From contig OZ260664.1 in the NCBI GenBank assembly GCA_965285935.1, positions 72,540,001 to 72,604,000 on the forward strand: 64,000 nt of DNA, written 5' to 3'. Shown in pieces: positions 18,001 to 40,000 of the stretch (positions are counted from its first letter, which is position 1; each line of letters opens with the position of its first letter). The DNA comes from Ophelia neglecta (taxonomy: Eukaryota). A program made the position numbers.

Positions 18001-21000
18001 TGTCACCCCCAGACAATCAGCTGATTCTGTACCTGTCATCCCACAGACAATCAGCTGATTCTGCACCTGTCACCCCGCGGGCAATTAGCTGATTCTGTAC
18101 CTGTCACCCCGCGGGCAATCAGCTGGTTCAGTGCCAGTCATCCCGCGGGCAATCAGCTAGTTCAGTTCCAGTCATCCCGTGGGCAATCAGCTGGTTCAGT
18201 GCCAGTCATCCCGTGAGCAAACATAAGCTGGTTCTGTACATGTCACCCCACAGACAACCAGCTGTTTCTGTACCTGTCACCCCAAAGACAATCAGCCGAT
18301 TCTGTACCGTTCACCCAACAGACAATCAGCTGGCCCTGTACAAAAACCATTCAGACAAACAGCTGGTTCTGTACCTGTCATCCCATGGTTGTTGTTGTTG
18401 TTTGGGGTTTTACGTGGCTTTCAACACTCATCGGTCATATCGCCACGGTGCCTACTTGTGACAGTGGGCTCAATGCCCTCTTTAGAGTGCTGCCTCACTG
18501 GAGTACCTGTCATCCCATGGACAATCAGCTGATTCTGTTCCTGTCACCCCTCGATGCAATCAGCTGGTTTATGTGGTGTCAATGTGATGGTTCAGTCCTT
18601 TTCTTAAGTATTTATTCACCTTGTAATTAAACTATGTTTAGCTGTGTCCGAACATTTTGTGTAGCCCCCCGTCCCCCAATTACTATCTATCTAGCCCAGG
18701 TGTATGAAATATGATATTGCAATGTTTAGTCAGCTTTCAATAGACAGACAGACTCCCACCTAATTATTCGATTTTTTAAACCATAGGTTATGGACCTTAA
18801 TGTAGATATGTTTCTACCTAGAGGTACTGTATCGAGAGCATGAGGGATAAAACACAAACATCACATGATACCTTTTATAAGATATCATTTTACCACTTCA
18901 GGGCAATTTGGCAGATCTTCATGGAGAGAAGCACATTGTGGGCAATATTTCACAACAGTAAAAAAGGAAATGGCCATAAATAAATTAGCTACAGCCATTA
19001 CATAGTCATTATAGTTTATATAACTGTCATGTATTACGTCTAATGCAGAATATAATTGAGCAGCCAGCTAGATGTACGTTAACTGATTTAGTTAACTAAT
19101 ATATTGGCTTTATTTGGTAACTTAGGCAGGCTTTCATAAACAAATAACAACCAAGATATGACCACAAATAACATACATGTAGTAATGTTTTATTCTGTAC
19201 AAATTTCTATTATAATAATTTAAACAATAAATGAACTTTATTATGAAGCCCATCATTGAAAGATGAAGTGGATTTCATCAAATTATTTCATTCTTAAAAT
19301 AAAGTAATTGATATATACAAGCCTTTATTACAGACTGAGTGTAAAATTTCATTTTCAAACATAATTATATTTCAGCCTCCTACCGTATAGCTTGGATGAA
19401 TTTGCTATGTTAATAAGCCAAGCTGGAAAGCTTGTTCAGCTCTGATAGTCTTGTTAATCTTACCAAATTAATGAAAGCTGAATCACACTACCATGACTGG
19501 CAGACAGCTGGCTAGCCAGCTATAAGATCATTATAACCTGACGAAAACTATGATGAAAGGGGTCACTCATATATGACCAGCAGTTAGCTGTCCAGACAGG
19601 CATAAAGTCTTTATAACCAGACGAAAACTACGCCGAAAACCTAATTTTGTATTTGTACATAAAGCTTTACATTGTGTAAAATATTTATATTTTTGCCTGG
19701 TAGACCTATTTGTTAAGTTTATTATATTGAAATAGAGCAGAAAGAATCATTAGTAGAAGCTTTAATAAAAAAATAAAAACTGTAAAATGTACATAATTGA
19801 ATATAAATACTACTGTTCAGGTGAAGCGTAATATCGTTGCACCAGGTTTAATGGTGGAATGTTGCTACTAAAATAACAAAATAAAAAGGCAAAGGATAAA
19901 TGACAGTAAAAGGAAAAACTGTTTCTATCATTTGGTAGGTTAATTAACTACTCGTGTTATAAACAGACTAAACTAGTTAGCAATGTACAGGACTGTCCCT
20001 AACTAACGGTACTACTTATTACTCTTCTGTTTGTAAATCCTATCTACCACATGGAGATTCACCCACAGGGAAAACTAGACATACATTGCCTATTCCAATC
20101 AAATCTAGGCAACAATAATATGTATCCATAAACATTAAATATTATGCATGATTACCCCAGTGTTCTTAAACAGTACTCAAGAAACAATTCATTAAATGAA
20201 TGTCTAAAAATAAGTCTAATTTCACTTGCTGGCAGTTATGAATTGTATAAAATAGCATATTAAAAAATTTCCAACCAATTGTGACTTGCATAAAATTATG
20301 AACATCATCACCATTTTAACAAGTCATTTAAACAACTGGCTCCAATACTGATGTCCTGGTAATGCAAGGCAACATACTACGAATGGGTTTTTAAATTATT
20401 ACCATAATTGTAAGTAAACCGAGCTATCCTATCTGAGGAGATTGTGTCCATAAAATTCTCATCAATTTGTGAAACAGTTGGGATAGTGTACATGCTTAAA
20501 TTTTGCTGTTTTCAACAAGATAACCCCTTGACCACATACTATAATAATTTGTTGTAAAAATCTGTAGAATTCCACTACATGTACTTGCCTTTATAACAGA
20601 TATCAGGATGGTAAAATCTGGTTTTTATGGCATCTGACCGCCTGTGCTGGGGAGTACATGTACTTTTATGTACAATTGGCATGTATTTTGGTCATGGTAC
20701 TTGTTTTATATGGCATATGGGTGTGGGGAAATCTCAGTTGCAGATCAAGTATGGCCACAAAGCATCTAGCTGCCAAGATTTTGCAATCCCAAGCCTCTTT
20801 TAGCTAGCACTTGACTACCCTGGAAGATGGCTGTGATCAAATAAGGCAGCAGAGTAAAAAATTGTCTGGTATCTAAGGCTTTGGTTGCAAGAGTATCTGG
20901 AGGCCATGGCTTTGGTGGCCATGGCATTTAGGTACTTTAGACTTCACTTTCCAGCTCCATGTCACTAAGATCCTGCAGTGGGGAGGTGGAGAACTTAGTC

Positions 21001-37000: not shown

Positions 37001-40000
37001 CAGGTGGTGTGAGGAGATTTCTATTATCCATTTGTAAAAGGCAACTACACCTCTTTTAAACATCTACTGTGATTAAAAATAAGTATAAATCAGTAAATAA
37101 TTGTCATGATAGACTTGATAATTGTGATATATTTGCTACTAAATAATAAAACATACAGCAAGTTACTCCTTTTTAAAAAAATTCCAAAAAATGTAATAAT
37201 ACCAGTAAAACATTCCCCATTATTCAGTAATCATCAGTTAAAACTCATCCTGACCACCCATGGTTAGTATTCATTAAAAAGTAAGTTGGAACTCTTATGT
37301 CATGAAGGCCAAAGAGTGATGTCATATTCCACATAAACATGATGTCACTTTCTAGCATCCATGACATCAGATGTCCCATAATGTTTTTTAACTGTCTATT
37401 TATATCTTTGCAGCAATTATAGTATAAATCACAAGTCATTAAAAACAAAAAAATGAGATGAACAATCTAATGAACTAAAAAAGTATGTCAAGGTCATGAG
37501 AAGTAAGCTCTAGCAAGCCATCTACCCTGGGAATATACATGTTAAACATAATGGTTCAACATTTCACTGAAACCACATGAGGAATTACTGAATTATAAGT
37601 TCAGGCATTAATTGAGTATATAACTTGCTGGTGGGCACAGATAAGGAGGCCAGAAGTCATGGAACCCTGACCTAACCTGTAGATATAGCTACCCAAGAGA
37701 TATGAAATATCATTTTCACATAAAGTTTTATGCACCTGGAAATGACTGGAACAGACTGAAAACCATTTCTATTTGCCCGTTGACATCATATTTGTGACAT
37801 TGAGGATATCTCTCTTTTTCCCCCGGTGGGACCCTTCATCAGGCCTTCCAGTTAAATAGCATGTATGTGTAAAATTGATAAATAAATCTTTGCCAAGGTA
37901 AAAACTTCATACATTTCCCTTGCCATACATTGCACAGTAGAAGAGTATTATGTCACAATGACATAATAAATCTTTGAAGAGATCCCGTTGTTTTTTCTAA
38001 TTTCGCACATACATGTAGTGAGTGTAGTACTGGCTTCGAGGACAGCATGCTCGTAAAGCATAGAGGTTTTATTAGTGATATGGAGGAGACCTGCAGGACA
38101 GTAGTCTATTGACCTTAGTCTATAGAATGTTATCCCCACTCATGGGGGCTTATTAACCAGTACATGTATAGATATTTTACTCCCTGTGCCTTGCTGCCGA
38201 GATGATGACCTCTAACTAATATCTACCTTTCTGGATCTTTTCTTTTTCCAACAGATGAAGAAGATGAGCAGTCCCACTAAGATCAGGAAAAGTATGGCCA
38301 CAGGAATGCCTATAGCTAACCCTAAATTTACTCCACTGGAGTCTGAAAAAAAAATCTTAGCATTAGTAAAAAAAACATACATGTATAAATTAATCAGACC
38401 ATAACAGCCTCCAGTCAAATGTTGAACCTCCTATATTTCATTTGAGGTGAACAGCAACATATACCCATTAATAAACCTAACAGGGAGACAGCAGTGCAGG
38501 ACAATGTACTAATATTTTATGATAATATCTGTATTCCGACTGTCTACATTTGAAAATCAGGTATTATCCAAAATACAAAAGATAAATTGTTCATTTGTCA
38601 ATTTCATTGGCTACATTATAATATCACCTACCACTTAACATTAATAACATAACATTTTTTGTAATAATTCAACTCTACTCCTTGAAGAGGCTGTGAGTGA
38701 AAAGTTAGCGTCAGGTAATAAATACTTGTATGAGAAATAGTTCTAATATTTTTTATGAGACACAGGATATCAATTATTTGTTTAGGGTGTCAGATTCTTA
38801 CCAGCAGGGGCCACAGTTGTTCCCACCAGCCCATTGTTCTGAGAACCATCCCCAGATGATGGGGAGTCATTCAAGGGCACACCAACAGGTGGTGCTACTG
38901 ATGTTGTGGCTGCCATGGTAACACTGTCTTTTTCTCCCTGTGGCACAAAGTCTCCACCTTGGGATAGAACTGCACCACCAGTAGTGGGATCTGTACTCCT
39001 GGTGGTCAATTTGGGGTTTATTCCTCCTCCATTTACAAGGGGAGCCACCGTTGTATCCATTGGCCCTTCAGCACTCTCCATAGCAACACCACCTCCATCA
39101 GGTGGCTTTTGAGAAGTGGTCGTAGACATTATAACAATCGTGGAATCCTTCCATTATCACATTACCTACTTTTCAAATAATTTCCTTTCTTCTTACAGGA
39201 AAGTTTGATGAAATATTTACATTTCATTTCACATGCTATAAATGAATATCACAGATGCTTTCCTAAAATCACAGCAGGCCTAGACACACTTGGCTGCACT
39301 GCATGGTGTTCCACACTGGATCAGTGATCGAGGTTCTCACATTTAGTATGTGTAACTACCAATTCTATGAAGATTGAGTATTGTATCTTCTTCAAGCACA
39401 TCACATAAAAACATCCACAGGAATCCTATGAACAATGGTCGAATTTATACACAGCCACCATTCGTCACAAGTGGCGGAATGAAGTGTCCACTGCCACTGT
39501 CAGGTCATCATCCAGTCTTTGGTCATCATCCAATAACATACCTGTGCCAAATAGAAAACCAACATCATCATTCATTCTTATCGTTTTCCCATCTGCCCCC
39601 CAGTGAAAGGTATAAATTGATAGTAACACTATCAACATGATGGCATTCGTGCCTAGGCGACAAGCCCCAGCGACTACTGCACAAAGTCACACTTTCTCCT
39701 CATTTAAGGCTTAAATTCATATGATATCAACTATACAGGCTGCTGGTCATAGATCGATGATGCCAGTGTAAAAACACGTTACGAAGACATGAACATAATT
39801 ATAAATCAGTAAGATGGTATGTGCAATTAATATGCCAATTATCCACTTGCCCCTACATGTGTCATGAATTAGCTTTCAAAACTAACACATACAGTATATC
39901 TATATCTATATAATATGGCAATACATGTAATAGGTAAACAAAGAACTGGCAATAGATGTAGACTAGCCATACATTATTGCAAGAAAAAATTTGTAAAGCA

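Follow-up and report, generated by a model that had tools for sequence, protein, structure and literature searches.

Adaptors built from several SH3 domains, such as CIN85/CD2AP, Nck, Tks and intersectin, are cytosolic scaffolds that reach membranes through lipids or through binding to receptors. CIN85 and CD2AP end in a coiled coil and not in a PDZ ligand. The yeast protein Fus1p has no cleaved signal, and its Ser/Thr-rich outer segment measures about 70 residues. Passages of PMC2132759 and PMC3817587 describe it as an O-glycosylated, N-out membrane protein whose cytosolic SH3 domain binds formins. An engineered fusion of CD16 and the CD7 transmembrane segment (TM) to three Nck SH3 domains recruits N-WASP/WIP upon clustering and drives actin assembly, as reported in part of PMC3365498. 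We analysed a stretch of 64,000 nucleotides from Ophelia neglecta (assembly GCA_965285935.1, contig OZ260664.1, positions 72,540,001 to 72,604,000), hereafter the window, which has about 38% G+C and contains no N. Its minus strand carries, between an ATG at 39129 and a stop at 20937, a gene for a predicted membrane-anchored protein with three SH3 domains. The original prediction made from this DNA had noted that proteins joining a TM to SH3 domains are best known from fungi, in agreement with what parts of PMC3817587 say of Fus1p and Sho1p.

On the evidence of sequence features, exon phases, family membership and conservation, we put at roughly 0.7 the probability that the locus is one gene of 12 exons and that its product, a single-pass membrane protein joining an N-out stalk to a membrane-tethered multivalent SH3 scaffold, belongs to an unnamed family conserved among animals. 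Judged by sequence, the window gene is one member of this family, which has hitherto borne automatic names only.

The gene model and its exons

Exons were searched one at a time, and the length of the whole protein is the arithmetic sum over them (4965 coding nt, 1654 aa). A mechanical phase check found AG and GT at the borders of all 12 coding exons and phases that chain without an internal stop. The features of the model are as follows, a slash marking the exon border in splice sites and ORF standing for open reading frame.

39154..39156, minus strand: in-frame stop TAA, 8 codons 5' of the start; the ORF listing begins at 39153
39129..39127, minus strand: start codon ATG, read from the sequence
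38802..39129, minus strand: exon 1, Cys-free segment rich in T/G/P/S, 109 codons plus 1 base, ending in phase 1 at donor G/GTAAGA
38227..38342, minus strand: exon 2, TM of 26 hydrophobic residues with an I-P-V motif, then KKKRSRK; matches the family profile
31822..31933, minus strand: exon 3, charged juxtamembrane linker, 37 codons, phase 0 to 1, acceptor tgtcttcttttgcgcag, donor AAG/gtaggt
30423..30596, minus strand: exon 4, SH3-1 (Pfam SH3_2, E 2.7e-9), weak donor GTTTGG
28408..29328, minus strand: exon 5, acidic Ser-rich linker, 306 codons (D+E 21%, S 14%)
27956..28143, minus strand: exon 6, SH3-2 (Pfam SH3_9, E 8.3e-13)
26135..26222, minus strand: exon 6b, linker between SH3-2 and SH3-3, 29 codons plus 1 base (88 nt), from enumeration and phase
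25079..25233, minus strand: exon 7, SH3-3 (Pfam SH3_1, E 3.3e-15)
24780..24873, minus strand: exon 8, S/T/P-rich linker, 31 codons, from splice signals and phase
21930..24564, minus strand: exon 9, PxxP-enriched disordered tail, 877 codons, matching the family profile at residues 47-110
21452..21509, minus strand: exon 10, 19 codons, from splice signals and phase
20937..21032, minus strand: exon 11, 31 codons, ending in ELESEV and TAA (stop at 20939..20937)

Exon 1 is composed of 14% Thr, 16% Gly, 11% Pro and 10% Ser, has no Cys and includes one N-D-S sequon; exons 1, 3, 5 and 9 gave no Pfam match. Its best 10-residue Kyte-Doolittle window reaches only 1.22-1.28, so that no signal-peptide-like core is present. 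The TM of exon 2 has a 19-residue window of 3.19, and the net charge of its flanks is 0 before and +6 after the segment. Two Pfam hits to this exon fell short of their cut-offs and were read as hydrophobic noise: Psg1 with 20.6 bits against 30.1, and PMT with 18.2 bits against 22.7. An ATG in another frame at 39153-39155 (minus strand), 24 nt before the start codon, may open a small upstream ORF that meets a TGA inside exon 1.

The junction 38227/31933, which links the TM to the SH3 part, has a GT donor, an AG acceptor and matching phases. Between exons 2 and 4, exon 3 was the sole hydrophilic candidate that fits the phases and has a pyrimidine-rich acceptor; the frame of a 109-aa ORF at 31693..32022 was tried in its place and rejected, the phase of its donor being a misfit to exon 4. 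Drawn from splice signals and phase, without homology support, exon 3 is the least certain exon of the model. The three SH3 exons retain the usual ligand-binding residues of the fold, as read from the sequence. In SH3-2, GWI replaces GWW and the distal loop is longer, as in the SH3-2 domains of the family described below, and SH3-3 is 56% identical to the SH3-3 of Owenia.

The SH3-2 exon ends in phase 0 at 27956 and the good acceptor of SH3-3 at 25233 is in phase 1. Because these phases do not close, all phase 0-to-1 exons in the intervening intron were enumerated, and exon 6b (26222..26135), with its strong acceptor ctattttag and its donor TGG/gtaatg, was added to restore the frame. The resulting linker of 32 aa lies within the 16-46 aa of the relatives (23-46 aa in 19 of 20 rows), a range reached only with this added exon, and its acidic end, GEFDEDLTGM-E-YQVLYPY, resembles the hemichordate linker ends DDFEEGVEYKAVYSY. 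Direct splicing of exon 6 to exon 7 through the phase-0 acceptor at 25249 was rejected, as it would use a poor pyrimidine tract and leave an 8-aa linker unlike that of any relative. The intron 3' of the SH3-2 exon is filled by a 53-bp tandem repeat (24 copies, 26693-27971). Its first copy overlaps the end of exon 6 and the donor (GGGAAGGGGTAAGTG), so that each copy carries decoy 5' splice sites.

The 877-residue tail in exon 9 contains 13% Pro and 25 PxxP motifs, as compared with 14.2 +/- 3.3 in 1000 composition shuffles, two of which reach 25. Class I [RK]xxPxxP motifs (6 vs 1.8 in shuffles) and class II PxxPx[RK] motifs (7 vs 1.8) are likewise more frequent, and PxxxPR, the ligand type of CIN85/CD2AP, is not enriched (2 vs 0.9 expected; 227 of 1000 shuffles reach 2). 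At the very end, E-S-E-V-stop (S-E-V codons within 20948..20940) fits the class I PDZ-ligand pattern [ST]-x-hydrophobic; no retrieval signal of the KKxx or KDEL type is found at this C-terminus.

All the features that the original prediction had described were found at 20937..39129 on the minus strand: the T/G/P-rich N-terminus without a signal peptide and with a stop upstream (TAA 39156..39154), the one TM followed by KKKRSRK, the three SH3 domains and the class I PDZ-type end. Its PxxP-rich stretch of about 900 residues before the ELESEV end corresponds to the 877 aa of a single exon in a chain that stops at 20937. The junction 38227/31933 that it named stands, and the 88-nt exon 6b is added to the gene model.

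Relatives with the same architecture

An exhaustive phmmer search with the SH3-2 exon yielded 1480 matches at E<=0.001, the best 150 of which were analysed. Since total scores sum over domains, the stored matches were re-analysed by a hydrophobicity scan and by per-domain phmmer of the three SH3 exons. Eighteen of these best 150 of 1480 matches combine, in one protein, an N-terminus rich in S/T, a single strong TM with a basic cluster after it, three SH3 domains spaced as in the window and a long tail. The protein, which the original prediction had called unusual, is no singular oddity but one of a conserved family already present in public protein sets. Molluscs account for 14 genera among the 18 relatives, which also include one annelid, one hemichordate, one sponge and two further records; two more proteins carry the SH3 trio of the family, namely a Saccoglossus model without the N-terminal part and a Pinctada model without the TM. 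The mollusc genera looked up were Argopecten, Mytilus, Haliotis, Gigantopelta, Babylonia, Batillaria, Aplysia, Patella, Elysia, Lymnaea, Plakobranchus, Nucella, Pinctada and Sinanodonta, and the other animals Owenia (annelid), Ptychodera and Saccoglossus (hemichordates) and Oscarella pearsei (sponge; EP00118_P007595, a transcriptome ORF of type complete). All names are automatic and include 'serine-rich adhesin for platelets-like' (Argopecten irradians XP_069130487), 'mucin-17' (Aplysia californica XP_012940158), 'dynamin-binding protein' (Patella vulgata XP_050415354), 'intersectin-1' and 'uncharacterized'; other family records are Owenia fusiformis CAH1776870 and Ptychodera flava XP_070554251. 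Two members of the scallop cluster are 1649-aa ORFs in which the N-terminus, the TM, the SH3 domains and a QTIV end lie in one frame. Their contigs measure only 6367 and 7447 nt, which implies that these ORFs are intron-free.

In 13 of the 18 relatives an initial Met is present without a hydrophobic leader, and the S/T/P-rich region before the TM is 181-1350 aa long and Cys-free in all of these (12 of 13) except P0104 (2% Cys). In Ptychodera the TM is preceded by just 24 residues, and the models of two of the 18 are N-terminally partial. The TM is followed by a basic cluster and often contains the I-P-V motif seen in the window. After SH3-3, the tails show motifs in a fixed order: [RK].AP.PP (in 20 of 22 relatives' rows), a basic sequence that we call motif B and, about 30 residues on, [PAVL]PPRP. 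A fourth, degenerate SH3 domain ends many family members and is absent in the Owenia and Aplysia models. Among the 17 relatives scanned with Pfam, matches were to SH3 families, plus TMEM154 in four and PRIMA1 in one.

The window gene was placed in this family by several routes. A profile built from the alignment of 17 relatives was run on each window exon separately and gave collinear matches: exon 2 at profile positions 392-423 (13.1 bits, E 1e-3), SH3-1 at 465-521 (59.8 bits), SH3-2 at 611-668 (56.9 bits), SH3-3 at 705-755 (84.7 bits) and residues 47-110 of exon 9 at 897-960 (19.9 bits, E 8.4e-6). When exon 9 was shuffled 20 times, no shuffle appeared in the output at E<=10. A tree of 106 SH3 domains placed SH3-3 inside the family SH3-3 clade with a support of 97, which was starred, and grouped SH3-1 with the family SH3-1 rows with weaker, unstarred support (87/82 by the Shimodaira-Hasegawa-like approximate likelihood ratio test, SH-aLRT). 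The features shared with the family comprise the leaderless N-terminus, the TM with its basic cluster, three position-matched SH3 domains, motif B and the [ST]-x-[VIL] end. Four motifs of the tail are placed as follows.

24374..24421, minus strand: motif B KPQVPRRYVVPKLVKI, exon 9 residues 48-63, fitting P.[RK]R[FYW]V.PK[LF][VI]K[VI]
24299..24334, minus strand: class I SH3-ligand motif RPTRPAPPVPQK, about 14 residues past motif B
24011..24031, minus strand: PPPRPPT, fitting [PAVIL]PPR[PR][^DE][^DE], as this motif is defined in a passage of PMC12730246
23036..23056, minus strand: PPPRPLS, a second fit to the same PMC12730246 definition

By regular expression, motif B was recognised in 9 of 17 relatives as well as in the window; its counterparts are PEIPRRTVKTKLVKLP (sponge), PPLPIRFVEPKFVKIP (annelid) and PVVPKRFVKPKLIKVP (scallop). 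Ends of the [ST]-x-[VIL] type, among them Q-T-E-L, I-T-E-L, M-T-E-L and Q-T-H-V, occur in 8 of 20 family representatives vs 1 of 127 other multi-SH3 matches of the same search, and Patella isoform X1 supplies one more. Given this enrichment, the S-x-V end of the window sequence is not due to chance.

No full-length relative of more than 50% identity was found; what the searches did return above that level were exon-sized ORFs of 58-79% identity. Two of them, P0001 and P0007, lie on 28148-nt ENA contigs and match SH3-3 (73%) and SH3-2 (79%); they are likely to represent the orthologous locus in a closer relative. Word-index searches had hardly any sensitivity here: with the SH3-3 exon, one 114-aa exon-like ORF was obtained among 13 candidates, and with exon 9 none of 7999 candidates scored. 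The same search with Ptychodera residues 690-1010 returned only Ptychodera itself and Saccoglossus, a result that does not settle vertebrate or arthropod membership. Owenia residues 400-1000 retrieved a cluster of 89 members under an automatic name. Vertebrate, arthropod, nematode, cnidarian and echinoderm members were not found among the 20 looked-up proteins, a sample by which absence from these groups is not shown. Literature searches of one open-access library for animal proteins with a TM and multiple SH3 domains listed no description of the family.

A second kind of TM protein with multiple SH3 domains was seen in P0002-P0006 and P0094. In these, an N-terminal region of 110-245 aa, which contains 5-6% Cys and lacks an obvious leader, precedes a TM with a basic cluster, 5-10 SH3 domains and ends rich in S/Y/G. 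TM-anchored multi-SH3 proteins may be more widely spread in eukaryotes than the literature suggests.

Proposed mechanism and competing readings

In the arrangement that we favour, the hydrophobic segment would serve as an uncleaved reverse signal-anchor, leaving the T/S/P/G-rich, Cys-free N-terminus of about 115 residues on the extracellular or luminal side, where it would form a flexible and probably O-glycosylated stalk. Everything past KKKRSRK would then be cytosolic and form a multivalent scaffold held at the membrane, in which three ligand-competent SH3 domains could bind proline-rich partners. The disordered tail, with its basic motif B, its class I RxxPxxP sequence and its PPPRP motifs, might recruit other SH3 proteins or fold back on the SH3 domains of the same molecule, and the C-terminal S-E-V would dock the protein to PDZ scaffolds. 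Junctions, synapses and endocytosis, the settings suggested in the original prediction, are candidate sites of action, and closure on its own PxxP motifs is a candidate form of autoinhibition. For topology, glycosylation, partners, autoinhibition and cellular site, we infer from the sequence what such a molecule would do. The N-out/C-in orientation is favoured by the positive-inside rule, and hydrophobicity and flanking charges agree, by sequence rules, with a reverse signal-anchor of type III. Neuregulin-1 provides a precedent for the translocation of a long N-terminus without a signal. Type III membrane proteins are defined by very short luminal domains in a passage of PMC8998515, and by that definition signal-less translocation of 115 to 1350 residues would be unusual.

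A wider proposal is considerably more doubtful. The family may be ancient, reaching from sponges to hemichordates, and its signal-less anchors with long N-tails might couple the state of the sugar coat to SH3-driven actin or endocytic assembly at PDZ patches, with motif B as a docking site. If that were true, reverse signal-anchors with long N-tails would form a class outside current type III definitions, and what is sensed through the sugar coat would be crowding, shear or contact.

Several observations weigh against a single gene of this family and against its proposed topology. The family profile does not match exon 1, ectodomains being unconserved in the family, and an ORF as long as exon 1 is not very rare in 64 kb at 38% G+C. 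The N-tail of about 115 aa here, and of 181-1350 aa in most relatives, is longer than the short luminal domain by which type III is defined. Exons 3, 8 and 10 were drawn from splice signals and phase, and the donor of exon 4 is weak (GTTTGG). The juxtamembrane DLW motif, which is confined to molluscs, was not found in the window, with none in a usable context in the 7.6-kb intron; nor was the mollusc VSSF motif. No exact [RK].AP.PP lies between SH3-3 and motif B, the nearest sequence in the window being RPAPPVP after motif B, and tblastn with the C-terminal 110 aa of 12 relatives matched only the known SH3 exons of the window and revealed no exon for a fourth, C-terminal SH3. In the free tree, SH3-2 groups with sorbin-like and DNMBP-like SH3 domains at 96 (starred). 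This placement is biased, because the outgroups were drawn from SH3-2's own best matches; when SH3-2 was constrained among the 16 family SH3-2 rows, the log-likelihood was 16.6 higher and the arrangement was not rejected (approximately unbiased test, p-AU 0.757).

It is highly improbable, in our judgement, that the locus merges two neighbouring genes, a mucin-like single-pass protein (exons 1-2) and a downstream cytosolic triple-SH3 adaptor. Such a division would suit exon 3, the sole bridge, which is without homology support, as well as the Pinctada model with its SH3 trio and no TM and one GenBank annotation of Mytilus edulis in which the orthologous locus is divided between a TM model of 298 aa and an SH3 model of 1148 aa. 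The RefSeq models of the same mussel join both parts, however, and the TM and the SH3 domains stand together in one protein in 18 relatives of four phyla, including the sponge transcriptome ORF and the two intron-free scallop-cluster ORFs. Within the window, exon 4 opens in phase 1 and so needs an upstream coding exon, the only ATG-bearing frame near exon 3 ends in the wrong phase, and exon 2 matches the family profile at its TM positions. There is also little likelihood that this is an ordinary type I protein whose short signal-peptide exon, upstream of 39129, was missed both here and in most models of the relatives. The 8.5 kb of unassigned DNA between this gene and an upstream channel gene could hold such an exon, the Oscarella and Plakobranchus relatives have hydrophobic N-termini (H10 2.01 and 2.91), which also counts against the preferred reading, and luminal N-domains longer than 100 aa, according to part of PMC8998515, as a rule depend on a cleavable signal. 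Against a missed exon, the in-frame TAA lies 8 codons upstream, and the stretch from there to the ATG offers a single AG, which lacks a pyrimidine tract; in 13 of 18 relatives an initial Met is followed by hydrophilic, S/T-rich sequence, as it is in the two scallop-cluster ORFs on transcript-like contigs; and the 24 residues before the TM in Ptychodera make a classic reverse signal-anchor.

The destination of the protein is not fixed by the sequence, and the basic and SH3-ligand motifs of the tail are typical of endocytic adaptors, so that a real protein scaffolding trafficking at an internal membrane (endoplasmic reticulum, Golgi, endosome or other organelle) has to be considered. We regard it as unlikely: a KKxx- or KDEL-type retrieval end is lacking, and S/T/P-rich, Cys-free stalks combined with [ST]-x-[VIL] ends typically mark surface proteins that PDZ scaffolds hold in place. 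A fourth reading, in which a TM replaces the PX domain of a p47phox/Tks4/Tks5 relative and a tandem pair of SH3 domains clamps the protein's own PPPRP motif, draws on the motif [PAVIL]PPR[PR][^DE][^DE], which passages of PMC12730246 define for the tandem SH3 domains there. Besides its two copies in exon 9, this motif occurs 11 times in 9 of 18 family sequences vs 0.4 expected and sits about 30 residues past motif B in 6 of 17 relatives; PPPRP is also an ordinary SH3 ligand. In the PDB searches, NCF1 chains headed the lists of SH3-1 and SH3-3. For SH3-1, the NCF1 score is a sum over two domains (32.8 + 30.7 bits), and single domains score higher, those of NCK1/2 being the best matches of this kind (NCK2, 43.6 bits; CIN85, 43.3 bits); for SH3-3, cortactin at 48.5 bits equals NCF1. 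Kinship of the SH3 domains to p47phox was rejected on these scores. The tandem-SH3 signature given in part of PMC12730246, GWW in both adjacent domains with a short acidic linker, contrasts with GWI in SH3-2 here, GWM in the relatives' consensus and a linker of 16-46 aa in the family. A PX domain was not detected by Pfam in the eight exon ORFs scanned or in the 17 relatives. The p47phox reading is thus quite improbable as a statement of membership, and the relation is kept as a lead. The single-gene, N-out member of the unnamed family remains the reading that we prefer.

Neighbouring sequence and known systems

Upstream of the gene, the minus strand carries exons of a DEG/ENaC (ASC) channel at 47717-63389, which bracket several other domains; downstream, a midkine/pleiotrophin-like gene occupies 537-1776 of the same strand. 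The Pfam features of both neighbours, multi-domain genes of an invertebrate style, are listed here.

63042-63389, minus strand: ASC exon, profile positions 17-80
60773-61147, minus strand: Kringle domain
58891-59382, minus strand: MAM domain
57674-57946, minus strand: CUB domain
55090-55602, minus strand: two FN2 domains
50396-50608, minus strand: ASC exon, profile positions 267-322
47717-47965, minus strand: ASC exon, profile positions 427-454
1432-1776, minus strand: PTN_MK_N (2.1e-10)
537-779, minus strand: PTN_MK_C (1.6e-9)

Additional FN2-like ORFs are spread over 52238-56022, and the 535-aa ORF at 48294-49901 is without a Pfam match (both minus strand). The ASC locus would encode a channel whose outer loop is hugely decorated, or else consist of nested genes. 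At 16014-18385, 69 copies of a 34-bp unit are repeated in tandem (84% matches); the array is open in all three plus-strand frames and has a strong skew of C over G; other tandem arrays are found at 10378-10855 (52 bp x 9) and 62278-62436 (39 bp x 4).

The findings bear on annotation, since names such as 'serine-rich adhesin for platelets-like', 'mucin-17' and 'dynamin-binding protein' can be flagged as misleading and at least one locus as split in two. They also offer a testable case for the signal-less translocation of long, disordered N-termini, and the conserved short motifs (motif B, R.AP.PP and PPPRP) make it possible to look for partners with peptide arrays.

The closest system is the unnamed family itself, with which the window protein shares the signal-less, S/T-rich and Cys-free N-terminus, the TM with I-P-V and basic cluster, SH3-1, an SH3-2 with GWM or GWI, SH3-3, a linker of 16-46 aa between the last two, a tail with motif B and proline motifs and the [ST]-x-[VIL] end. 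It differs in its N-terminal region, about 115 aa vs 181-1350 aa in most relatives and 24 in Ptychodera. The design is kept in the sponge, hemichordates, molluscs and an annelid, under nothing but automatic database names so far. CIN85 (SH3KBP1) and CD2AP likewise are multivalent scaffolds with three SH3 domains followed by a proline-rich region, but they are cytosolic, lack a TM and an ectodomain and carry their SH3 domains at the very N-terminus, whereas in the window protein a TM and a stalk precede the SH3 domains and the end is of the PDZ-ligand type. The p47phox-related organisers (NCF1, NOXO1, Tks4, Tks5) are membrane-targeted multi-SH3 scaffolds whose proline motifs close on their own SH3 domains; they are targeted by a PX domain rather than a TM, and their tandem-SH3 signatures are not those of the window protein. 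Sialomucins of the podocalyxin/CD34 family have a stalk resembling a mucin, a single TM and a cytoplasmic terminus of D-T-[EH]-L type, to which the Q-T-E-L, I-T-E-L, M-T-E-L and Q-T-H-V ends of the relatives may be compared; unlike the window protein, they carry signal peptides, have tails of only about 75 aa and lack SH3 domains. As an analogy only, yeast Fus1p may be considered the closest natural analogue; it has one SH3 domain and no PDZ-type end, and it is fungal and mating-specific. In the family described here the scaffold would itself be embedded in the membrane, bearing a mucin-like stalk on the outside and an anchor of the PDZ type, and would hence be a natural counterpart to the TM-Nck-SH3 fusions engineered for studies of actin assembly. 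Both tether three SH3 domains to the membrane through a TM; the fusion is artificial, and the natural protein adds a long, motif-rich tail and a PDZ-type end.

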